Origin: an uncultured beta proteobacterium
GTDB lineage: Bacteria; Pseudomonadota; Gammaproteobacteria; Burkholderiales; SG8-39
Reading direction: 5' to 3'
Assembly (NCBI GenBank): GCA_963811085.1
Contig: CAWEPV010000010.1
Coordinates: forward strand, 35,399 to 99,398
Length of the DNA: 64,000 bases
Under the pieces are notes generated by a model. The model did not search any database. It had not been told where the DNA came from and was given only the letters and a program-made list of their open reading frames with translations. Each line of letters opens with the position of its first letter. The first letter of the stretch is position 1. A program made the translations under genes and the position numbers. This document shows, piece by piece, positions 44,671 through 54,566 of the stretch.

Positions 44671-45786
44671 TCACGCGAAGCTCAGGTCCGGCTCGAGCCC
44701 GAGCAGATAGCGCCCCACGGTTTCGAAGTGCGCGCGGCGGCCCTGCAGCTGCTGCGCGACCGCGTGCAGGTCGCGAAAGCGCCGCTCGAAGGGGTTGCGC
44801 TCGAACACCGCGCTGGCGCCGGCGGCGTGGTAGGCCGCGTCGCCCGCGGCGACCGCTTCCTGCATCGCGTGGCTCGCCGCGAGCCGGATCGCCATGCGCT
44901 GATCGAGCGTGAGCCGGTTCGCCTGCTCCACCTCGCGCCACACCTCGGCCAGCGTGCCAAACAGGTACGCGCGCGCCGCGCGCAGGCGCGCCTCGGTCTG
45001 CGCGAGATCGAGCTGGAACAGCGCGCTCTCGCGCAGCCTGGTCTTGTAGCCGCGCGGCGTCTTCTCCAGCGCGAGGGCCGCGAGCGCGTCGACCAGCCCG
45101 CGCGCGAGACCGATCGCGACGCCCGCGAATCCGGCGGCGTACATCGACCCGGTGGGCAGGCAATAGAGCGGCCCCTGGCAGCGGCGCTCGGACTGGTCGT
45201 CGCGCGAGACGCTGAACGCCGCCGGCACGAACAGGTCCTTCACCTCATAAGCGTCGCTTGCCGTGCCGCGCAGTCCGATCACATGCCAGATGTCGCTCAT
45301 TTGCGCCTGGTCGGCGCGAAAGAGCATGGTGCGCCCGATTGCTGCGCCCTCGATCGCGCAGTAGCCGCCGAGCCAGTTGGCGTGCCGGCCGCCGCTTGCG
45401 AAGGCGAACGAGCCCGAGATGCGCCAGCCGCGCTCCACCGGCACCGCGCGCGCGTTCGGTCCCGGTCCCCAGGCCAGCACCGCGCGCGGATCGCGGCCGT
45501 AGATTTCCCCGGCGACCTCGGGCGCGACGAAGGCTGCGACCATCGAGCAGACCGAGTTCTGGCACAGGCACCAGGCGGTGCTGGCGTCGTGGCGCGCGAT
45601 CTCGGACATCGTTTCGACGAAGCCGACGGGATCCTTCTCGCCGCCGCCGTAGGCCTTGGGCAGCAGCATGCGGAACCAGCCGCCCTCGTGCAGCGCCTCG
45701 AGCAGTTCGGGCGGCAGGCGCCGCTCCTTTTCGATGCGCTCGGCCGAGCGCGCAACCAGTTCGGTGAGCGAGCCGAGCCCGCTCAC
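44671..45786 (-). CDS. Acyl-CoA dehydrogenase-fold flavin-dependent monooxygenase (HsaA/C2-like)
   Basis: LLPKAYGG, FASG, WHVIGLRGTAS, ERRFRDLH. Confidence 0.85.
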   Translation of the reverse strand: MSGLGSLTELVARSAERIEKERRLPPELLEALHEGGWFRMLLPKAYGGGEKDPVGFVETMSEIARHDASTAWCLCQNSVCSMVAAFVAPEVAGEIYGRDPRAVLAWGPGPNARAVPVERGWRISGSFAFASGGRHANWLGGYCAIEGAAIGRTMLFRADQAQMSDIWHVIGLRGTASDAYEVKDLFVPAAFSVSRDDQSERRCQGPLYCLPTGSMYAAGFAGVAIGLARGLVDALAALALEKTPRGYKTRLRESALFQLDLAQTEARLRAARAYLFGTLAEVWREVEQANRLTLDQRMAIRLAASHAMQEAVAAGDAAYHAAGASAVFERNPFERRFRDLHAVAQQLQGRRAHFETVGRYLLGLEPDLSFA

Positions 45787-46655
45787 GAGCGCTCCGCGCG
45801 CGGCTGTGCCGGCTGCACCGCGTCGTAGCCGGGCGCGTAACGCACGTTGCTCTGCTCAGGGTCGCGGTTCACCAGCGGGCGGGCGTACAGCGGGTGGCGC
45901 ATGCTGCGCACCTCGTGCTCGAGCGTGAAGAGCTTGCGGCCGCTCGCGGGATCGACCAGGTCCCTGAAGCGGTACTGGTGCTGGTCGCTTTCCTCACTGA
46001 CCAGGCCGCGCTCGAGCAGCCGGCGGTAGGGTCCGGAGAAGTCGGCCAGGTACACCTGGATATGATGCCCGTCGTAGGCCAGCGGCTCGCGCTCGCTCTC
46101 CCGGTACAGGAGCACCTGGTCCGGCCCGACATCCACCCGCGCCGCGCCGTCCTCGAGCCGTGCCGGAGCGTCCATGATCTCGCGGTAGAAGCGCACGATC
46201 CCCTCGGCGGCTCCGGGCGGCACGTCGAGCTCGACGTAGGGCATTCCGAGCCGGATCCGGCCGAATCGCGGCTGTGGTTCGTGCACGCGGATCACGTTGC
46301 CCCACGGGCTCAGCGCCTCGACGAAGCCTTCGTGCTCGGCGAACGCGAAACGGGTGCCGTCGAGGACCTTCTTCGCGCGCGCCAGGCGCGCCAGCAGCGC
46401 CTCGCGGCCGGGGATCACGACGCCTACCCGCCCGCGCAGCACCTCCGGCTTCGAGGTCGGCAGGTGGAACTGGCAGCGCCCGACGTTGACCCACATGTTG
46501 TCGGTGCCGGTCATCAGGTAGGGGTCGCGCGTGAGGCCGAGCGCGCTGACGTAGAACGCGGTGGCCAGCTGCTGGTCCGGGATCCGGGTGTTGACGTGCT
46601 CCAGCGCAATCACGTTGCCCAGGTCTTCGGCGCTGCGGTCGTAGCTGTTTCGCAT
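45783..46655 (-). CDS. VOC/glyoxalase-like hypothetical protein
   Basis: LEHVN...FY..ALGL, QFHLP, HHIQVY, LEHEVRS; GTGA-coupled to the monooxygenase. Confidence 0.65.
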   Translation of the reverse strand: MRNSYDRSAEDLGNVIALEHVNTRIPDQQLATAFYVSALGLTRDPYLMTGTDNMWVNVGRCQFHLPTSKPEVLRGRVGVVIPGREALLARLARAKKVLDGTRFAFAEHEGFVEALSPWGNVIRVHEPQPRFGRIRLGMPYVELDVPPGAAEGIVRFYREIMDAPARLEDGAARVDVGPDQVLLYRESEREPLAYDGHHIQVYLADFSGPYRRLLERGLVSEESDQHQYRFRDLVDPASGRKLFTLEHEVRSMRHPLYARPLVNRDPEQSNVRYAPGYDAVQPAQPRAERS

Positions 46656-46702
46656 GGCGCGCAGATTGCCGCATGCCATGGCGCTTGGCAATCGGGCGGA
46701 AC

Positions 46703-47851
46703 CTATTTCACCGGCTGGCTGGAGTAGTAGTCGGACAGGCTCTCGATGACGGCGTCGCCGTAGGGCATGCTCATCGTATGCATCATCGAGCTCTTGCGGC
46801 GGTCGTCACGGTAAGCCCGCAGTGCCATGATGAGGTAGTCGCGGTCCTGACCGTTGATCTTCGGGAACGCCACGTTGGTATTTTCTGCCACCTCAGGACC
46901 ATGACAGCGGTTGCATTTTTCAGTCAGGTCCTGAACCAGAGTCTGCCCATTCTCGGCGGGTCCCGATTTCTGGATGGAATAGAACGCAGCGATATCCCCA
47001 ATCTGCTTTTCGCTCAACTCGCTGACGTAGAGACGCATGTTCGCGCGCTTGCGGGTGGTGCGGTAGGCCTTGATCGCGTCGACCAGATATCGGGGGTCCT
47101 GGGCGGCGAGCCGCGGCGTTGCCGAGTCGCCGCTCACCCCGGACGGGCCGTGACAGCCGCCGCACACCGCGCTCAAGGGCTCGCCCGCCTTCGGATCCCC
47201 GAACGGCGGCGTGCCGCGTTCGGCGGGAGCCTGCGACGCGAAGTACAGCGCCACGCTTTCCATCTGTACCCTGTTGAGACTGCGCAGCATCGGGTGCATC
47301 GGCGAGCGTGCGCGCTCGGCGTTGAGGTATTCCTGCATTGCGGCCACGAGGTAGCGCGGCTGCTGGCCGGCGAGCGTCGGGATGCCGGGAGTCGTGCTGT
47401 TGCCGTCGGCGCCGTGGCACTTGGCGCACTCGGCCGTCAATGTCTTGCCCTCTTCATAGGGCGAGAAGATGTGGGCCGGCCTGTCCGCGGTCCGGGCGAC
47501 GGGAGGCATGCTGGCGTAGTACGCGAGAACGTTGTGCTCCTGCTTCTCGGTCAGGCCCTCGGCGATCTTGGTCAGGACGACGTGAATGCGCTTGCCCTGC
47601 CGGTAGTCCTCCATCGCCGCGACGAGGTAGCGATAGGGTTGCGCCGCCAGGGTCGGGATTCCGGGCGCGATGCCCTTGCCGTCCATCCCGTGGCAACGCT
47701 TGCATTCGCTCTCGGCCACCACCTTGCCCGCGCCGAGGTCTGCGGCGGCCGGTACTCCTCCCGCCGCCTTGGATGCCGTCTCCTCCTTGTTCGAGCAGCC
47801 GATCAGAGCCACGCAAAGGACGAGACCCAGCAGAACGCGCGTGTCCATCAC
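46703..47851 (-). CDS. Tetraheme cytochrome c (four c4/c553-type domains), putative lipoprotein
   Basis: CKRCH, CAKCH, CGGCH, CNRCH, each followed by P.LA.Q...YL-type motif; lipobox-like LIGC. Confidence 0.9.
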   Translation of the reverse strand: MMDTRVLLGLVLCVALIGCSNKEETASKAAGGVPAAADLGAGKVVAESECKRCHGMDGKGIAPGIPTLAAQPYRYLVAAMEDYRQGKRIHVVLTKIAEGLTEKQEHNVLAYYASMPPVARTADRPAHIFSPYEEGKTLTAECAKCHGADGNSTTPGIPTLAGQQPRYLVAAMQEYLNAERARSPMHPMLRSLNRVQMESVALYFASQAPAERGTPPFGDPKAGEPLSAVCGGCHGPSGVSGDSATPRLAAQDPRYLVDAIKAYRTTRKRANMRLYVSELSEKQIGDIAAFYSIQKSGPAENGQTLVQDLTEKCNRCHGPEVAENTNVAFPKINGQDRDYLIMALRAYRDDRRKSSMMHTMSMPYGDAVIESLSDYYSSQPVK

Positions 47852-47898
47852 AGACCTCCCGAGATGCCAGATTGCATTTTACTCCGTCGCACGGCTGA

Positions 47899-49884
47899 TC
47901 ACGCGAGCCCCACGCTTCCCGTATAGCCGATGATCACCAGGATCAACAGGATCAGGCCGATGCTGATGAGCGTGAAGCCGAGGATCTTGGAGCCGATCGT
48001 CATCGGGCGCGACGGAACGTCGACCAAGCGCTTCTCCAACTCCCCGGACTCGAGCAGGCGCTTGTATTCGGCTGCGTGCTCGCGCTTGAATTCCTCCAGC
48101 GACACGGCACCGGTGAACATCACGATGTCGAGCGGGAACTTGTCGGGACGGAAGTGGTTGTTGAAGAAGTGCACCGTGAACAGGAACACAGCCGCGAGGA
48201 TCGCCTCCTCCCCGTGAACCAGGGTCGCGATGTTGAACACCCAGCCCGGAAGCACCGATGCAACCTGTACCGGGAACCACAGCGTCAGCCCGCTGCCGCC
48301 GATGATCGCAAAGCCCCAGAAGACCGCCCAGTAGTCGAATTTCTCCCAGTAGGTCCAGCGGTCGAAGGCCGGCCGCGGCCCCTTGCCGAAGAACCAAGTG
48401 AACATGAGGACCATGTCCGCGAGGTCCTGCCAGCGCGGCACGAGCGAATTGGGCCCGAACCACTGGAACTCCTTGCCCTTGCGGGCGATGTGCAGCAGGA
48501 AGTAGACCAAGTGCACCGCGAATATCGTCAGGAAGATCGACGCGAACGAACGGTGCATGATCGCCGCGACCTTGGGGCTGCCGAGCCAGTGCATGACGAC
48601 CGGCGCCCACGGGCTGCTGCCGTAGAGCACCGACATCCCGGTCAGCACCAGGCCCATGACCGACATCGCGAGCATCAGGTGCGCGAGGCGCCAGACCGGG
48701 CCGAAACGCTGGATGTACTTGCCCTCGTCCGCCGCGGCTTCGGCGGTCTTGACGTACGGCCGGCTTTTGCGCTCCTTGCGGTCCTTGTACTCGCGGTAGA
48801 ACCACAGCGCCATGTGCGTCCAGAAGAACGCGAACACGCCGAACAGCAGGGCGGCCATAAAGTGCCCCGCGAACCAGAGATACGGATAACGCTTGTAGTC
48901 GTGGGCGTTGCCGTGCGGCTCGAAGGTGGCGAAGCCCGCCGACGCGTCCTTGTGGCACTGCTGGCAGGTCTTCACCCGGTTCGTCGGGTACACGGTCGAA
49001 TGCGGATCGTTGACCCGCTTGATGCCGTGGCTGCCGTGGCAGTCGAAGCATTTGGCCGTGTAGCCATAGCCCAGCGCGGTGATCTGCCCGTGGTAGGTCG
49101 CGAGGTAGGTCTTCAGGTTCTCCACGTGGCACTTGCCGCAGTTCTTGGTGATCATGACCCTGACTGACGCGCTCTTCGGCGATTCGATGTCGTGCATGGT
49201 GTGGCAATCCACGCACACCGGCGCCGACTGAATGCCATACTTCAGCACCAGCTCGCCGTGGATGGACGTGCCGTACAGGGCGCGCTCCTCGGTGTGGCAC
49301 TTGCCGCAGATATTGGGGACCGTGAGCCGCCACTTTTGCCACTCCGGGCTGCCCTTGGGAAAGACCGCGTGCGCGTCGTGGCAGTTGTAGCAGGTCGCGT
49401 TGGTGCGCGACTGGTCCGCACGGCTCGGCCGGGCGTGGATCGACTTCATGTAGCCCTTGATCTGCGCGACCACGACCCCAAGCCGCGCGAACTCCTTGGT
49501 CTTGCCTTCGCGCTGCGCCTTGGCCCAGAGGTCCTCGTGGCACTCCACGCAGCTGACCTTGCGCTGCACGCCCGGCCGGTGCGGGATCTCCTTGATGTCC
49601 TTGTGGCACTCCACGCACAGCCGCTTGCCGTGCACACTCTTGCCGAAGCGCTCGGGGTTGACGAACAGCGAGCGCATCTTCCCGTCCGGGCCGGGCATCT
49701 GGAACCCTTCGCTACCGTGGCAGCCAAGACAGATGTCGTTGGTGGGTCGCTCATCGGCCTGATCCGACGCCTGGGCCTCAGCTGCCGCGGCGGGAGCGAC
49801 CCCCGGCAGCGGCAGGCCCGGCACGCCGGCCAGGCAGGCCGCGCCCGCAAGTGCCCAAGCCGCTATCTCTTGCCTTATTTGCAT
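47899..49884 (-). CDS. Nonaheme cytochrome c fused to FdnI/HydC-type cytochrome b (CbcL-like)
   Basis: Nine CxxCH motifs; membrane domain with RLAH, MHR, WEKFDYWAVFWG, VHGEEA, VHFFNNH. Confidence 0.88.
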   Translation of the reverse strand: MQIRQEIAAWALAGAACLAGVPGLPLPGVAPAAAAEAQASDQADERPTNDICLGCHGSEGFQMPGPDGKMRSLFVNPERFGKSVHGKRLCVECHKDIKEIPHRPGVQRKVSCVECHEDLWAKAQREGKTKEFARLGVVVAQIKGYMKSIHARPSRADQSRTNATCYNCHDAHAVFPKGSPEWQKWRLTVPNICGKCHTEERALYGTSIHGELVLKYGIQSAPVCVDCHTMHDIESPKSASVRVMITKNCGKCHVENLKTYLATYHGQITALGYGYTAKCFDCHGSHGIKRVNDPHSTVYPTNRVKTCQQCHKDASAGFATFEPHGNAHDYKRYPYLWFAGHFMAALLFGVFAFFWTHMALWFYREYKDRKERKSRPYVKTAEAAADEGKYIQRFGPVWRLAHLMLAMSVMGLVLTGMSVLYGSSPWAPVVMHWLGSPKVAAIMHRSFASIFLTIFAVHLVYFLLHIARKGKEFQWFGPNSLVPRWQDLADMVLMFTWFFGKGPRPAFDRWTYWEKFDYWAVFWGFAIIGGSGLTLWFPVQVASVLPGWVFNIATLVHGEEAILAAVFLFTVHFFNNHFRPDKFPLDIVMFTGAVSLEEFKREHAAEYKRLLESGELEKRLVDVPSRPMTIGSKILGFTLISIGLILLILVIIGYTGSVGLA

Positions 49885-49958
49885 TTCCGTTCCCTGAGCT
49901 CCGGCAGTCGTTCTTTTGGCGGATCGCATCCGCGCCTAAGACTTTGTCAACATTGGAG

Positions 49959-50000
49959 GTTATAAAGACAAGCCTCCCTCGCCGATTTGACCTAGATCAG
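49959..50000 (-). promoter_or_regulatory. FNR-type class II promoter for the CbcL-like gene
   Basis: TTGAC-CTAG-ATCAG at 49987..50000 and minus-strand TATAAC at 49964..49959 give a box centre of about -41.5. Confidence 0.6.
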
Positions 50001-50100
50001 GGCGCTGTAAGATATGCTGTGTCAAATTTGCAAATGCAGGCTACTTTGTAACCCGGCGGCGCGCCGGCGAAGGCGCCTCGCACAACGTGGAGGTTGCGCA

Positions 50101-50427
50101 ATGAAGATCTTAAAGAACATGCTGGCCGTTGTGGCCGTTGTGACCTTTGCCGCGCTTAGCCCGAGCGCGACGGCCGTACCGACGGGAAAGACGATCGAGT
50201 TTAACGGTGGGCCGATGGGCACGGTCCATTTCAGCGGCAAGGTACATGCCGACGCGGGGCTCAAGTGCAACGCGTGCCACACCAAGATTTTCAAGATGAA
50301 GAAGGGCGGGGACAAGATCACGATGGCCGCGATCAACAAGGGCGAGTTCTGCGGCACCTGCCACAACGGGGAAAAAGCGTTCAAGTCTTCCGACCCGAAG
50401 AACTGCAAGACCTGCCACAAGAAGTAA
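50101..50427 (+). CDS. Periplasmic triheme c7-type cytochrome
   Basis: Signal peptide; CNACH, CGTCH, CKTCH; ITM..I..G.FC motif; GGAGG RBS. Confidence 0.9.
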   Translation: MKILKNMLAVVAVVTFAALSPSATAVPTGKTIEFNGGPMGTVHFSGKVHADAGLKCNACHTKIFKMKKGGDKITMAAINKGEFCGTCHNGEKAFKSSDPKNCKTCHKK

Positions 50428-50442
50428 TCCCGCGATCCTGAC

Positions 50443-50465
50443 CGGCCCCGGGTGCGCCGGGGCCG
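50443..50465. terminator. GC-rich hairpin between convergent genes
   Basis: CGGCCCCGG-GTGCG-CCGGGGCCG; no U-tract. Confidence 0.5.
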
Positions 50466-51260
50466 TCAGCCGAGCAGGCGCTGGGCGGCCTCTCCTCTCT
50501 CTGCGACCGCGCGTGGCGGCCGCGAGAGCCACATCTGGTACATCGACACGAGCCACATGTAGACGAACGACAGCGCCATGAGGGCGCCGGCGAAGATCAC
50601 GACTCCGGCGAAGGGATGGTACAGCTTGGTGAAGTACCACGAGCTGACGTCAAGCACCAGCGCCAGGAACGGCGCCGCCATGACGGTGCACTTGAACCAC
50701 ACCGGGCGCAGGAAAGCATGGCTGAAAATGAGCCCCATAATGAAGAAGACGAACGTGAGGCCGAAAAGGTGAATGTGCGACACGCGCACCAGCGTGAATA
50801 TTCCGGTGCCGGTGTCGATTTCGGTCACTTTCTTCAGGTTGTCGTAGCCGTTTAGGTTCGGCAGGTGCGGGTTGCTGCCGTCGTGGCAGGCCATGCAGCG
50901 CTGGTCGAGTACGGGCTTGATCGTGTTTTCGTACTGCGCACGGTCCGAGCCGCGCTCCACCCAGGTAATGATCTGGTTCATCTCGTCGTGCGGAAGCATG
51001 CTCGACATCGGTCCGCGCAGCGCGGCTTCGAGGCGCGAAGTCTTGCCGCTGCCGCTGTAGGCGACCACGATGTCCTGGTAGGTCAGGATCAGCGGATTCC
51101 CCCCCGCGCGCCCGGCGTAGCTGTGATACAGGTAGATCCCCGCGAACAGATACGCCAGTGCAAGCACCAGCAGTGCGCACGTATAAAGGACGCGCAGGCT
51201 GTAGGGCAGCTCCGAATAATGCAGATAGAAGCGGTGTACGGGGGTGGGCGCATCAGTCAT
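50466..51260 (-). CDS. Membrane-bound monoheme cytochrome c-like protein
   Basis: CMACH in a soluble loop; N-terminal TM plus about three C-terminal TMs with VSHIHLFG. Confidence 0.75.
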   Translation of the reverse strand: MTDAPTPVHRFYLHYSELPYSLRVLYTCALLVLALAYLFAGIYLYHSYAGRAGGNPLILTYQDIVVAYSGSGKTSRLEAALRGPMSSMLPHDEMNQIITWVERGSDRAQYENTIKPVLDQRCMACHDGSNPHLPNLNGYDNLKKVTEIDTGTGIFTLVRVSHIHLFGLTFVFFIMGLIFSHAFLRPVWFKCTVMAAPFLALVLDVSSWYFTKLYHPFAGVVIFAGALMALSFVYMWLVSMYQMWLSRPPRAVAERGEAAQRLLG

Positions 51261-51309
51261 CTTCGATTCCTCTCGTTCTTACAGACCGGAGCGCCGTGGC
51301 GCCCAGCTG

Positions 51310-52548
51310 TCACTGGCACGGCAGCGTCACGTACACGACCGGGCGCGCGCGCTGGCTGGCATAGTAGGCCGCCAGTGCGCCGATATCCGCCGGGGTCAGC
51401 AGCGCCGTCATTGCCGACATGATGTCGCTCTTGCGCTTCCCGGTCTGGTAGGCGCGCAGTGCCTGCTCCAGGTAGTCGAAGCGCTGTGCCGCGAGCGCCG
51501 GGATGCGCGGGTCCTTGCTGTTGCCGTTGTCGCCGTGGCAGCGATCGCAGCGTGCGACCCACTGCGACGGTGAAAGGGGTGCGCGCACGTTGGCCGGTCG
51601 CTTGGGCTCCAGCGAAGCGTAGTACGCCGCCAGATTCTTCGTCGCGCCATCGTCGAGCCCTCCCGCAATGCCGCTCATCGCCGGATCGCTCCGTGCGCCG
51701 CTCTTGTATGCGTGCAGCGCCTTCACAAAATACTCGGCATCCTGGCCGGCGAGGCTCGGCGTGGCGGGATTTCCGCTGATGCCGCGCTCGCCGTGGCAAC
51801 CGACGCACGCCTCAGCGTCTTTCTTGCCCGCCTCCCCGTCCCCTTTGGCCGGCGTGTTCGCGCGGGCGGGCTTCTGCAGGGCGAAATACAGCGCGAGCGA
51901 CTTGATCTCCGAGTCATTGAGCGAGTCGACCATCGACTTCATCGTGTCGTCCTTGCGCTGCCCGTTCTTGTAGGAGAACATTGTCGCGGCCAGGTATTTG
52001 GGATCCTGGCCGACGAGGCTCGGCATGCCAGGCGTGCTGCTGACACCGTTGTCGCCGTGACAGCCGGCGCAACCGGCCGCCGCCGCAGCGGCGGTCTGAA
52101 GCGTGGAGCCCTTGGCGGCCGCGGCAGCCGCTCCGCGCAGCGGCACCGGCCGCGCCGGCTCGAGGCTCGCGTAGTAGGCCGAGACCTGGACCAGCGCCTT
52201 GTCGCTGAGGAACTTCACCGCCCGCGCCATGGCTTCGTTGCTGCGCTTGCCCGTCTTGTAGGCGTTCAGATCGAGATAGACGTAGGCCGCGCGCTGACCC
52301 GCGATGTGGGGAATTCCGGGAATCGTGCTCTGCCCGAGCAGCCCGTGACAGACCGCGCACGATCCTTCGGCGACGGCCTTGCCTTCTGCGATATCCTCGG
52401 TGCCCGCGTACACGGCCCGGAAATCATCGCCCTTGCGCGCCGTCACCGTCGTCACCTGGGCGGCTGCCAGCGAAACGTAGGCCGCGAGCGCAAAGCCTGC
52501 GCAAGCGGCAAACAACGCCCGGATTGCAGCATGACTACTGCGCTTCAT
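51310..52548 (-). CDS. Periplasmic tetraheme cytochrome c (four c4/c553-type domains)
   Basis: Signal peptide; CAVCH, CAGCH, CVGCH, CDRCH, each with a downstream axial-type Met. Confidence 0.9.
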   Translation of the reverse strand: MKRSSHAAIRALFAACAGFALAAYVSLAAAQVTTVTARKGDDFRAVYAGTEDIAEGKAVAEGSCAVCHGLLGQSTIPGIPHIAGQRAAYVYLDLNAYKTGKRSNEAMARAVKFLSDKALVQVSAYYASLEPARPVPLRGAAAAAAKGSTLQTAAAAAAGCAGCHGDNGVSSTPGMPSLVGQDPKYLAATMFSYKNGQRKDDTMKSMVDSLNDSEIKSLALYFALQKPARANTPAKGDGEAGKKDAEACVGCHGERGISGNPATPSLAGQDAEYFVKALHAYKSGARSDPAMSGIAGGLDDGATKNLAAYYASLEPKRPANVRAPLSPSQWVARCDRCHGDNGNSKDPRIPALAAQRFDYLEQALRAYQTGKRKSDIMSAMTALLTPADIGALAAYYASQRARPVVYVTLPCQ

Positions 52549-52641
52549 GAACCTTTCCTCTGCAACGAAAGATTGGATGTTCGACTCGCGTAGTTTAACT
52601 TCTAAAAAGCCGCCAGCCTAACGGGCCCGGGGAAAGCGCGG

Positions 52642-52655
52642 TTGATGCAAATCAA
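52642..52655. promoter_or_regulatory. Perfect FNR/ANR/DNR box
   Basis: TTGAT-GCAA-ATCAA, about 95 nt upstream of the tetraheme start. Confidence 0.75.
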
Positions 52656-52751
52656 ATCGAACCCGCGTCAGGGGCCGGAGGATTGTACGACAGTAGAGCG
52701 CGGCGCCCGGCAATCGGGCGATAATCCCGCCGCCAAAGGAGGAGTCAGCGC

Positions 52752-53207
52752 TTGAACGCCACCGCAATCCCCGAGGGCTTCCGCGCCCTCAACCTGCCGC
52801 GCAATCCCTTCATAGAGGCCAACGGCCCCCTGTACGGCCGGCTCGAAGGCGGCAGTTTCGTCATGGGATTCCTGTGCCAGACGAAGCACTGCAACCCGAT
52901 GATGGTGTGCCACGGCGGAATGGTGGCGACGCTGGCCGACATGCTGCTGCTGCTCGGCACCAACATCCAGACCGGGCTCGGCCAGTTCCTGCTCACCGTG
53001 AGCCTGGATGTCGATTTCGTCGCCCCGGTGAAGTTGGGCGACTGGCTGGAAGGCCGCACAGAGGTACTGCGCGCCGGCAAGAGCATCATCTTCACTCAGG
53101 GGCGCATGACGGTGCGCGGAGAACCCGTTGCGCGCGTCAACGCCGTGCTCAAGCCGAGCGGCAAGCCGCTCGCGGATTTCACTCCCGGGCGCTATTTCAG
53201 CGAGTAA
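52752..53207 (+). CDS. PaaI family thioesterase
   Basis: HCNPMMVCHGG...LAD; TTG start after AGGAGG. Confidence 0.85.
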   Translation: MNATAIPEGFRALNLPRNPFIEANGPLYGRLEGGSFVMGFLCQTKHCNPMMVCHGGMVATLADMLLLLGTNIQTGLGQFLLTVSLDVDFVAPVKLGDWLEGRTEVLRAGKSIIFTQGRMTVRGEPVARVNAVLKPSGKPLADFTPGRYFSE

Positions 53208-53211
53208 GGCG

Positions 53212-54303
53212 ATGGCCTCGCCCCGCTCTCATCGCGTCGCGGTCATCAAGGGCGACGGCATCGGGCCCGAGCTAGTCGACGCCGCCCTGCTCGTTCTCGA
53301 GGCGGCAAAGGAAGCGCTCGGCTTCGCACTCGAGATCGACCTGCGCGAAGGCGGCGCGGAGTTCTACCGCAGGACAGGCGCGAGCCTCGCGCCCGAGTCC
53401 TTCGAGGCGATCAAACGCGCCGATGCCGCGATGAAGGGCCCGGTGGGCCTGCCCGAGGTGCGCCTGCCCGACGGCACCGAGGCGGGGCTGCTCGGCGGCG
53501 TGCTGAGGATCGGGCTGGACGCCTACGCCAACGTGCGCCCGGTGCGGCTCCTGCCCGGCGTCGAGGCGCCGCTCAAGGCGAATGCGGGAGAAATCGACTA
53601 CGTGGTCGTGCGCGAGAACACCGAGGGCCTGTACCTGTCGCGCGGCAAGGGCGTCGGCACGAGCGAGGCGATGGCCGACACGATGCTCGTCACGCGCAAA
53701 GGCGTCGAGCGCGTCGCGCGCTACGCCTTCGAGCTCGCGCGAAGGAGGAGCGGCGCGCCCGAGGACGGCAAGCGCCGCGTCACCTGCGTCGACAAAGCCA
53801 ACGTACTGGCCTCGCTGGCGTTCTTCCGCCGCGTCTTCGACGAAGTCGGGGAAGCCTACCCCGACGTCGAGCGCGAGTATCTCTACGCCGACGCCGCGGC
53901 GCAGGCGCTGGTGCTGCACCCGCAGCGGCTCGACGTTCTGGTGATGGAGAACTTCCTCGGCGACATCCTTTCCGACCTCGGTGGCGCCACAGTCGGCGGG
54001 ATCGGCCTGTGCCCGTCGGGCAACATCGGCGATCGCCATGCGTATTTCGAACCGATCCACGGCAGTGCGCCCGACATCGCCGGTCAGGACAAGGCCAACC
54101 CCGTATCGCAGGTGCTTTCCGCCGCGCTCATGCTCGATCACCTGGGCGAGCGCGGCGCCGCCGAGCTGATCCGGCGCGCAGTCGACGCGGCGCTCGCGCA
54201 GAAGAAACTCGTCCTGAGCCGCTTCGGCCAGCCCGAAGCCGGCACCAGACACGCCGCCGAAACCCTCGCCGCCACCGTGCGCGCGCTTGCACCGCGGCAA
54301 TAG
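53212..54303 (+). CDS. Isocitrate/isopropylmalate/tartrate dehydrogenase family protein
   Basis: GDGIGPE, VRENTEG.Y, VDKANV, N..GDILSD, EPIHGSAPDIAG. Confidence 0.92.
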   Translation: MASPRSHRVAVIKGDGIGPELVDAALLVLEAAKEALGFALEIDLREGGAEFYRRTGASLAPESFEAIKRADAAMKGPVGLPEVRLPDGTEAGLLGGVLRIGLDAYANVRPVRLLPGVEAPLKANAGEIDYVVVRENTEGLYLSRGKGVGTSEAMADTMLVTRKGVERVARYAFELARRRSGAPEDGKRRVTCVDKANVLASLAFFRRVFDEVGEAYPDVEREYLYADAAAQALVLHPQRLDVLVMENFLGDILSDLGGATVGGIGLCPSGNIGDRHAYFEPIHGSAPDIAGQDKANPVSQVLSAALMLDHLGERGAAELIRRAVDAALAQKKLVLSRFGQPEAGTRHAAETLAATVRALAPRQ

Positions 54304-54350
54304 ATGCTCCTAGCATCCTCCGCATGCCGGTCAATCAGAAGTTAACCCGC

Positions 54351-54566
54351 ATGCCAGTGCCAAGCGTCGACCGCGCAGTGCTGATGCGGATTGCCCTGGG
54401 AAGTTTGGTCGGCCTGGTTGGCGGTGCGGCGCTTGGCGCTTTCACCGGAGGAATCGCCGCGCTATTTGCTCCAGAGGAGTTTTCCAGCACGGGACTTTTA
54501 GAATTTGTTCTTATCATGGCCGGCGCTGGTACTGTCGCAGGCTTGATCCAGGGGTCGCTGCATTGA
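54351..54566 (+). CDS. Small two-TM Gly-rich hypothetical protein
   Basis: Hydrophobic GxxxG-rich helices; start uncertain (54324 or 54351). Confidence 0.5.
   Translation: MPVPSVDRAVLMRIALGSLVGLVGGAALGAFTGGIAALFAPEEFSSTGLLEFVLIMAGAGTVAGLIQGSLH

Follow-up and report, generated by a model that had tools for sequence, protein, structure and literature searches.

Gene content of the locus

We analysed a stretch of 64,000 nucleotides (the window) from the genome of an uncultured beta proteobacterium of the Burkholderiales (assembly GCA_963811085.1, contig CAWEPV010000010.1, positions 35,399 to 99,398 of the forward strand). At 46703-52548 of the window lie five adjacent genes for heme proteins: two tetraheme cytochromes (c4A and c4B), a fusion of a nonaheme cytochrome c with a membrane domain of the putative diheme cytochrome b type (the fusion), a c7-type triheme cytochrome (c7) and a membrane protein with one heme c motif (mem1h). 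The open reading frames (ORFs) and motif counts agree with a preliminary description of this DNA, in which 4+9+3+1+4 CxxCH motifs (21 in total) were listed over five contiguous genes. The genes are contiguous but do not all point in one direction: c7 is alone on the plus strand, convergent with the mem1h gene and divergent from the fusion gene, and the other four genes are on the minus strand. The block therefore comprises at least three transcription units. Its density of heme motifs is far above chance, as two or more CxxCH motifs were found in just 22 of the 23,241 stop-to-stop frames of at least 80 amino acids (aa) in the genome, four of them within this 6 kb. The features of the locus are as follows.

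46687-46698, no strand: left 12-bp direct repeat GGCAATCGGGCG, cassette boundary
46703-47851, minus strand: c4A, tetraheme class-I (c4-like) cytochrome c, 382 aa, 4 CxxCH
47899-49929, minus strand: fusion, nonaheme c plus putative diheme-b-type membrane domain, 676 aa, 9 CxxCH
49987-50000, no strand: FNR-like site TTGACCTAGATCAG with 2 mismatches, between the fusion gene and c7
50101-50427, plus strand: c7-type triheme periplasmic cytochrome, 108 aa, signal peptide, 3 CxxCH
50466-51260, minus strand: mem1h, inner-membrane protein of four helices with a periplasmic domain for one heme c, assigned to PF27139, 264 aa, 1 CxxCH
51310-52548, minus strand: c4B, periplasmic tetraheme cytochrome with four His/Met c4-like domains, 412 aa, 4 CxxCH
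52642-52655, no strand: perfect FNR/ANR-type box TTGATGCAAATCAA, inside the cassette, 94 bp upstream of the c4B start
52709-52720, no strand: right copy of the 12-bp direct repeat, cassette boundary

The block is a discrete indel, an accessory cassette. Two genomes of the same genus (G115 and G011; loci L094 and L095) carry an empty site, at which flanks with 81-83% nucleotide identity to those of the window are 42 bp apart. The perfect 12-bp direct repeat that bounds the 6.0-kb block has just two copies in the 3.78-Mb genome and one in the empty sites, and in L005, the closest relative, the cassette occupies this same site and the repeat is present once. The GC content is 63.9% for the cassette versus 67.3% for the genome, and no mobility gene (integrase, transposase) was found within the block. 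The flanking genes belong to unrelated metabolism (an amidase, an acyl-CoA-dehydrogenase-like protein, a 4HBT thioesterase, an Iso_dh dehydrogenase, an SDR protein and CinA).

Conservation of the gene order

Relatives of mem1h were sought from a 12-row alignment in one genome per species and were confirmed in at least 593 species genomes, the best 80 loci being analysed. Genes were counted by tblastn (E <= 1e-10, at least 50% query cover, best non-overlapping assignment), with 40 loci offering at least 7 kb on both sides (full-flank loci). Nearly all of the related loci come from metagenome-assembled genomes (MAGs) of soil, groundwater and sediment, and the record titles name Burkholderiales, Casimicrobiaceae and Sterolibacterium as well as Bradyrhizobium, Pseudolabrys, Xanthobacteraceae and Sulfurifustaceae.

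Conservation is highest for the unit of c4B followed by mem1h: c4B was found directly upstream of mem1h in 77 of the 80 loci (38 of the 40 full-flank loci). A second tetraheme cytochrome of the c4A type was present in 41 loci (20 full-flank) and the fusion in 29 (17 full-flank), with a c4 tetraheme directly after the fusion in 20 of these 29 (12 among the full-flank loci). Four genes occurred together in 24/80 loci (13/40 full-flank), and all five in 2/80, both of them full-flank, namely the two closest relatives L005 and L006; c7 itself was seen in just 2/80. The condition named in the preliminary description as speaking against it, a lack of co-occurrence of the five genes in other genomes, thus applies in part.

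In many loci the pair stands beside genes of the Mto type of electron conduit, a decaheme cytochrome (MtoA) inserted in a porin (MtoB). With looser settings (E <= 1e-5, 40% cover), MtoA- plus MtoB-like genes were found in 17 of the 40 full-flank loci, the fusion in 20, both in 7 and at least one of them in 30; only the MtoA plus MtoB figure is meaningful here, as some low-identity MtoA matches overlap the heme domain of the fusion. In L013, L017 and L020 a decaheme gene and a porin of 656 to 921 aa adjoin c4B-mem1h, with no other four-heme ORF among the ORFs listed. In L091 and L092 the order is a fusion gene (53% identity to that of the window, 8 CxxCH), a monoheme cytochrome (119/124 aa), a decaheme MtoA and an MtrB/PioB porin, and in L093 all of these parts lie within 14 kb.

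The identities of mem1h, 60-91% across three proteobacterial classes, suggest transfer between classes, and the module may thus have been passed between Alpha-, Beta- and Gammaproteobacteria. Loci titled as Alphaproteobacteria (Bradyrhizobium, Pseudolabrys, Xanthobacteraceae, Stellaceae; L014, L015, L025, L028, L033, L035, L037, L040, L043, L047, L053, L057 and others) carry mem1h copies of 64-73% identity, as close as many Burkholderiales copies, and mis-binning is possible for them.

The c4B-mem1h pair

c4B and c4A are paralogues (39% identity) with four class-I cytochrome c stretches each. In c4B four Cytochrom_C/CBB3 stretches were recognized by Pfam, and four CxxCH motifs were present in all 73 of the orthologous ORFs. 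Among 38 orthologues M107, M291, M377 and M380 were invariant and M203 was at least 90% conserved. With four CxxCH motifs and one conserved Met per domain, all four hemes of c4B look His/Met-ligated. c4A gave 102.6 bits with Pfam Cytochrom_C over four stretches; its N-terminus reads by eye as a lipoprotein-type signal (LIGC), and its first domain has no obvious Met, also as read by eye. Both proteins had originally been taken for c4-type His/Met tetrahemes, which applies to every domain of c4B and to three of the four domains of c4A. The best NCBIfam match of both tetrahemes was PdsA (NF049874), with 106.1 and 117.4 bits, below the cut-off of 330, and both also matched ccoP weakly.

The second member of the pair, mem1h, is the most conserved and least understood part of the block and was passed over in the preliminary description. 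It had no match in the Pfam and NCBIfam copies that we scanned, of which the Pfam copy lacks the PF27139 model. The precomputed Pfam column assigned 120 of the 120 listed homologues to PF27139 (Aq_1264_TM), in line with the Atlas clusters (0.99). PF27139 is a membrane domain of unknown function that takes its name from Aquifex aq_1264 (Pfam), and our literature search yielded no paper on it and no function for it. The family is large, with 4061 proteins at E <= 1e-3 among 6130 candidates, and grouping at 50% identity gave 697 clusters. Across a diverse set of 43 members, C122, C125, H126 and H164 were invariant, and H162, M85, W100, K190 and D204 were at least 90% conserved.

In the AF2 model of mem1h (pLDDT 93.6) four helices span the membrane, and the heme site sits in a helical domain on the periplasmic side. 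No PDB entry matched this model in Foldseek at E <= 1e-3, and a wide VIA-align search gave generic four-helix bundles with a best Z of 9.3, below the value of about 13 that is advised for helical bundles. The absence of a specific solved relative of the modelled fold is not proof of a new fold. Prediction of a complex of mem1h with c4B scored 0.00 in two runs, which is no answer and counts neither way. Distant PF27139 relatives (L085-L090, in small-genome families of the Burkholderiales) have housekeeping genes around them and at most one monoheme cytochrome, but no multiheme gene nearby, which points to a wider role of the family.

The nonaheme/cytochrome b fusion and c7

In the fusion, nine His residues beyond the nine CxxCH motifs (H100, 117, 165, 187, 224, 246, 280, 301 and 339) are invariant in the c part among 14 sequences, which share no invariant Met in that part, and H417, H459, H572 and H587 are invariant in the membrane part. 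This agrees with the original reading of the gene as a fusion of a nonaheme cytochrome c with a cytochrome b. The protein aligned with the FdnI models of NCBIfam, far below their cut-offs. Four segments pass a Kyte-Doolittle hydropathy of 1.6, and the AF2 model has six long helices, at a pLDDT of 46 from a shallow alignment of 14 rows. The sole match in a sequence search of the PDB was 28pb_A, and it was weak (E of 3.6e-4 with the single sequence and 2.4e-4 with the profile). A database entry with 100% identity is 661 aa long, so that the start would be near 49884 and not at 49929. A look-alike cluster in the Atlas (620 aa, Thermodesulfobacteriota, 0.95) is a lead only.

Other forms of this protein were encountered: variants of about 737 aa that carry one more class-I cytochrome c at the C-terminus (e.g. 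P0169) and split forms, in which neighbouring frames encode the c part and the b part (G279, G300, G371, G245, G311 and G314). The genome of the window itself has a split, differently regulated paralogue of the fusion at C11:849000-860000 (contig:position), where a nonaheme cytochrome of 451 aa (28% identity to the fusion in its c part) precedes a separate cytochrome b of 223 aa, PhsC/HydC-like but below cut-offs. Genes for a response regulator, a sigma-54 activator and a histidine kinase lie on the flanks of this pair.

For c7, the preliminary description of a c7-type triheme was sound: the protein has three CxxCH motifs, its gene adjoins the fusion gene and it passed both c7 domain models (Pfam Cytochrome_C7, PF14522, 65.4 bits versus a cut-off of 24.8; TIGR04257, 77.3 versus 40). 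It did not pass the Geobacter c7 equivalog NF043011 (PpcA), with 25.3 bits versus a cut-off of 120. Relatives of c7 were found in metagenomes (278, of about 105 aa), and the few named ones belong to Betaproteobacteria and Nitrospiraceae.

MtoAB in the genome and co-occurrence with the fusion

The preliminary description, which covered the window, held that the terminal partner was unknown and proposed a genome search for MtrAB/MtoAB. This search was productive, and for the whole genome the statement fails: two tandem MtoA/MtoB pairs (311 aa + 692 aa and 321 aa + 763 aa) lie at C11:348.9-355.7 kb, above curated cut-offs and with the same FNR box as the cassette. The decahemes belong to the DmsE/MtrA family (282.2 and 277.5 bits, cut-off 192.2) and the porins beside them to MtrB/PioB (381.9 and 382.5 bits, cut-off 240.05). 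A gene for a CRP/FNR-family regulator is located divergently upstream of MtoA1, and cytochrome c assembly/maturation genes are located downstream of the pairs. An outer decaheme of the MtrC/OmcA type was not found over the cut-off among the proteins scanned, no genome-wide search for it having been made. The genome, which is rated 100% complete, has genes for the RuBisCO large subunit and for ccoN (cbb3 oxidase); searches for menA and for MqnA/D found neither.

The genome holds further multiheme genes. At C2:408000-426000 there are frames with 41 CxxCH (1146 aa) and 24 CxxCH (961 aa), which adjoin a 788-aa protein without a family match and a CcmH/CycH-like gene; this giant multiheme cluster recalls the 'PCC3' clusters described for iron oxidisers (PMC5566968).

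In an order-level sample of 401 genomes, searched for PF27139, MtrB/PioB and the fusion, we used plain counts since kin are not independent. A PF27139 relative was present in 33 genomes and MtrB/PioB in 58 (47 over the cut-off). The fusion was found in one frame (E <= 5e-165) in 20 genomes, with split c and b forms in 6 more. MtrB/PioB occurred in 16 of the 20 genomes with a full-length fusion versus 42 of the 381 others, and in 8 of the 16 genomes with both, fusion and MtrB/PioB were at most 10 kb apart. All of the six sampled genomes with a mem1h of the window type (E <= 1e-120) also had MtrB/PioB.

FNR boxes and transcripts

The box TTGATGCAAATCAA at 52642 is the sole perfect FNR box in the window. 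Perfect TTGAT-N4-ATCAA boxes number 9 in the 3.78 Mb of the genome, versus about 0.2 expected by our own base-composition estimate. Three of the nine precede c4B (C10:88040), MtoA1 (C11:348707, by 210 bp) and MtoA2 (C11:352106, by 312 bp), and another (C11:362771) precedes the gene for an SdhA/FrdA-like flavoprotein. The remaining perfect boxes are at C3:306243, C3:465024, C10:122263, C11:899469 and C13:756205. The closest relative, L005, has a box with one mismatch at the same -107 position upstream of c4B. The perfect box upstream of c4B fits the low-oxygen function that was envisaged for the block from the outset. The possibility that it serves the divergent thioesterase gene was rejected, because the box is inside the cassette, is absent from the empty-site genomes and hence travels with the cassette. 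The site TTGACCTAGATCAG is weak when taken alone, as 15 sites with at most 2 mismatches occur in the window versus 5.45 expected.

In run X11 of a salt-marsh metatranscriptome, each of the five genes is matched by RNA-library contigs, the pieces of which show 0-11 differences each; in run X14 four genes were covered and in run X20 two. Such contigs give no level, strand or ends, and DNA carry-over is possible. Most of the flanks (45000-46584 and 52925-54500) is left uncovered by them, which we did not use as evidence. Run X19 was set aside, as it gave mostly pieces of 95-99% with loose ends and an odd joint, probably conserved parts of relatives. Near-identical DNA was found in five salt-marsh metagenome runs (at least half of the sampled words) and in one soil run; one of the runs may be the source sample.

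Proposed role of the cassette

We consider it probable that the cassette is the inner-membrane and periplasmic half of an extracellular electron transfer (EET) module of the Mto/Mtr type, a judgement that concerns its place in the module and leaves the direction of electron flow aside. The gene content, the conservation of heme ligands, the synteny, the co-occurrence, the indel and the pattern of FNR boxes were computed as described above. The outer-membrane half would be the two MtoA decaheme/MtoB porin pairs elsewhere in the genome, and cassette and MtoAB would both respond to one FNR-type signal of low oxygen. The inner half may consist of two units. In the first, the fusion, CbcL-like and in the place of MtoC, would connect the quinone pool, across the membrane, with low-potential hemes in the periplasm, with the putative lipoprotein c4A and, in this lineage, also c7 as its periplasmic partners. 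In the second, the soluble c4B together with mem1h would form a membrane-docked branch, His/Met-ligated and probably of high potential. MtoAB would be the entry for electrons from Fe(II), minerals or reduced humics; part of these electrons would flow from c7 through the fusion to ubiquinone, and the other part from the c4 tetrahemes through mem1h toward the cbb3 oxidase. We slightly favour electron uptake over outward flow, because RuBisCO and cbb3 are present and no menaquinone genes were found, the host apparently having ubiquinone only, a combination that resembles Sideroxydans ES-1 as far as this organism is described in the source cited below.

Several observations weigh against this proposal. 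The electron-transfer steps, the partners and the direction are all inferred. With an FdnI-like topology, inward flow opposes the membrane potential, so that the donors would have to lie well below ubiquinone; whether Fe(II) does so at neutral pH is uncertain. The cytochrome b assignment of the fusion is affected by the score of its C-terminus, 24.1 bits for Ni_hydr_CYTB (PF01292-like) and thus below the Pfam cut-off of 30.1, and by an AF2 model that is unusable at its low pLDDT. Cassette and MtoAB are on different contigs in this genome, and the complete set of five genes is confined to the two closest relatives. The tie between mem1h and Mto is weaker than that of the fusion, with MtrB/PioB in 10 of the 33 PF27139 genomes versus 48 of the 368 others; in one family mem1h was present in 8 of the 11 genomes and MtrB in none of the 11, and the more distant relatives of mem1h are surrounded by housekeeping genes only. 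FNR boxes upstream of c4B elsewhere are modestly enriched (12 of 76 loci versus about 4.3 expected), many of the c4B genes among those 76 loci not being first in their operon. Finally, an X11 contig without differences (52455-52666) spans both the c4B start and the FNR box, which is a misfit with a promoter at the box unless there is read-through or DNA in the library; if the contig is RNA, transcription partly begins upstream of the box or continues into it from the other strand.

Two other explanations were considered. The cassette might serve a Geobacter-like outward route, the leading idea of the preliminary description, in which the fusion oxidises quinol and passes electrons through c7 and the c4 tetrahemes to MtoAB, thereby reducing Fe(III), Mn(IV), humics or electrodes in anoxia. 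We rate this as rather unlikely, though as the stronger of the two. The architecture of the fusion is the one published for CbcL, which is described as a donor to the c7 protein PpcA (PMC9129911), and Mto/Mtr conduits are stated to be reversible (PMC10734462); moreover, the c4-like diheme cytochrome PdsA, the best match of the tetrahemes albeit below its cut-off, is reported as a periplasmic shuttle to MtrA in Aeromonas (PMC8805035). Control by FNR fits anaerobic respiration, and a perfect box also precedes the SdhA/FrdA-like flavoprotein. On the other hand, ubiquinol would be a poor donor if the bis-His hemes are as low as the -194 mV given for CbcL (PMC9129911), and no menaquinone pathway was found in the genome. 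RuBisCO and cbb3 point instead to a lithoautotrophic, microaerobic lifestyle, and the proteins scanned (short of a genome-wide search) included no outer decaheme of the MtrC/OmcA type over the cut-off.

It is improbable, in our view, that the cassette is an internal low-oxygen branch, a quinol:cytochrome c route that bypasses bc1 and feeds c4 carriers, cbb3 or denitrification enzymes with no extracellular substrate. c4-type His/Met cytochromes are classic donors to cbb3 oxidases, and the weak ccoP matches of both tetrahemes, the FNR box, which fits microaerobic respiration as well, and the 23 of 33 sampled PF27139 genomes without any MtrB/PioB are all compatible with such a branch. It does not account for the tie of the fusion to MtrB/PioB (16/20 versus 42/381, often adjoining mtoAB), for the decaheme and porin genes beside the window-type c4B-mem1h pair in many loci, or for the perfect FNR boxes that are common to the cassette and both mtoAB operons.

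Returning to the cassette as the inner half of an Mto-type module, the c4B-mem1h pair may be given a more specific role, which we put forward as a doubtful suggestion. The pair would be a new inner-membrane redox module and the missing acceptor for Mto-type electron uptake in those soil and sediment Proteobacteria that have no CymA/ImoA, acting as a cytochrome c:quinone or cytochrome c:oxidase coupling site and spread among Alpha-, Beta- and Gammaproteobacteria on mobile EET islands. The periplasmic end of helix 2, where H162-x-H164 lies, might then form a quinone or metal site beneath heme c with the help of K190 and D204. The chain through the periplasm of neutrophilic iron oxidisers, from MtoAB to the inner membrane, is called wholly unknown in a recent preprint (bioRxiv 10.64898/2026.01.22.701106). 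The cassette offers a compact candidate set for this gap, consisting of a fusion of the MtoC/CbcL type and a tetraheme/PF27139 pair, which in this genome are both tied to mtoAB by the common FNR signal. If true, these genes would be EET markers for abundant uncultured soil Burkholderiales and Bradyrhizobium-like Alphaproteobacteria, and PF27139 would obtain its first function.

Comparison with known systems

The block was initially called Geobacter-style. This is apt as a resemblance, for the CbcL architecture with an adjoining c7-type triheme, but c7 falls far short of the Geobacter equivalog, and among the known systems the Mto pathway of iron-oxidising Betaproteobacteria is closer judging from gene order, because kin of the fusion are located directly upstream of monoheme-mtoA-mtoB, the layout that is described for mtoC. 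CbcL (GSU0274) of Geobacter sulfurreducens is described as a six-helix menaquinol oxidase that carries nine bis-His c hemes beside two b hemes, with hemes at -194 mV and donation to the c7 protein PpcA (PMC9129911). Compared by architecture only, the fusion resembles it in its nine probable bis-His c hemes, its putative six-helix domain of the diheme b type and the c7-type triheme as a likely partner. The differences are that c7 of the window fails the Geobacter c7 model, that no menaquinone genes were found in the host, that the neighbours are c4-type tetrahemes and Mto genes, and that no outer-membrane conduit of the Geobacter type was seen among the proteins scanned here.

For MtoC, the sources cited here speak of a 'nonaheme MtoC', an inner-membrane cytochrome (PMC5566968), and of mtoC as a putative inner-membrane quinone oxidoreductase (PMC8805035); in Gallionella capsiferriformans ES-2 the multiheme gene Galf_2006 is reported upstream of a c-type cytochrome and MtoA/B (PMC3770913). 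The likeness concerns the number of hemes, the location in the inner membrane and the position of the gene (mtoC-mtoD-mtoA-mtoB), the last being shared by kin of the fusion and not by the gene of the window. By its heme count and position we class the fusion as MtoC-like. The accounts of MtoC cited here mention no cytochrome b domain. The fusion gene of the window also differs in standing outside an mto operon, in a cassette of its own together with the genes for c7, both tetrahemes and mem1h. We did not equate the fusion with the nonaheme cytochrome of Ferrigenium straubiae, which has a single transmembrane helix and other neighbours as described in the preprint (bioRxiv 10.64898/2026.01.22.701106).

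The NetBCD-PdsA-MtrCAB chain of Aeromonas and Vibrio and the ImoA(CymA)-MtoD/PmcA-MtoAB chain of Sideroxydans ES-1, an organism that is stated to have no menaquinone genes (PMC13390432), follow the same logic, in which an inner-membrane quinone-active protein, a small class-I/c4-like periplasmic cytochrome and a decaheme in a porin succeed each other. Here, however, the tetrahemes are doubled (four hemes) and score far below the cut-off for PdsA, and the inner-membrane parts are neither NapC/NirT- nor NrfCD-like. Within PF27139, the subfamily of the window stands out from the family as a whole by being fixed beside a tetraheme c4 and often beside mtoAB. In the literature searched we found no description of the c4B-PF27139 pair, of its tie to mtoAB or of this cassette, although supplementary gene maps may hold some of these. 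The kind of protein to which the fusion belongs has already been noticed in genomes, as MtoC and CbcL; the c4B-mem1h pair and the cassette are a new form of the Mto/Mtr scheme.

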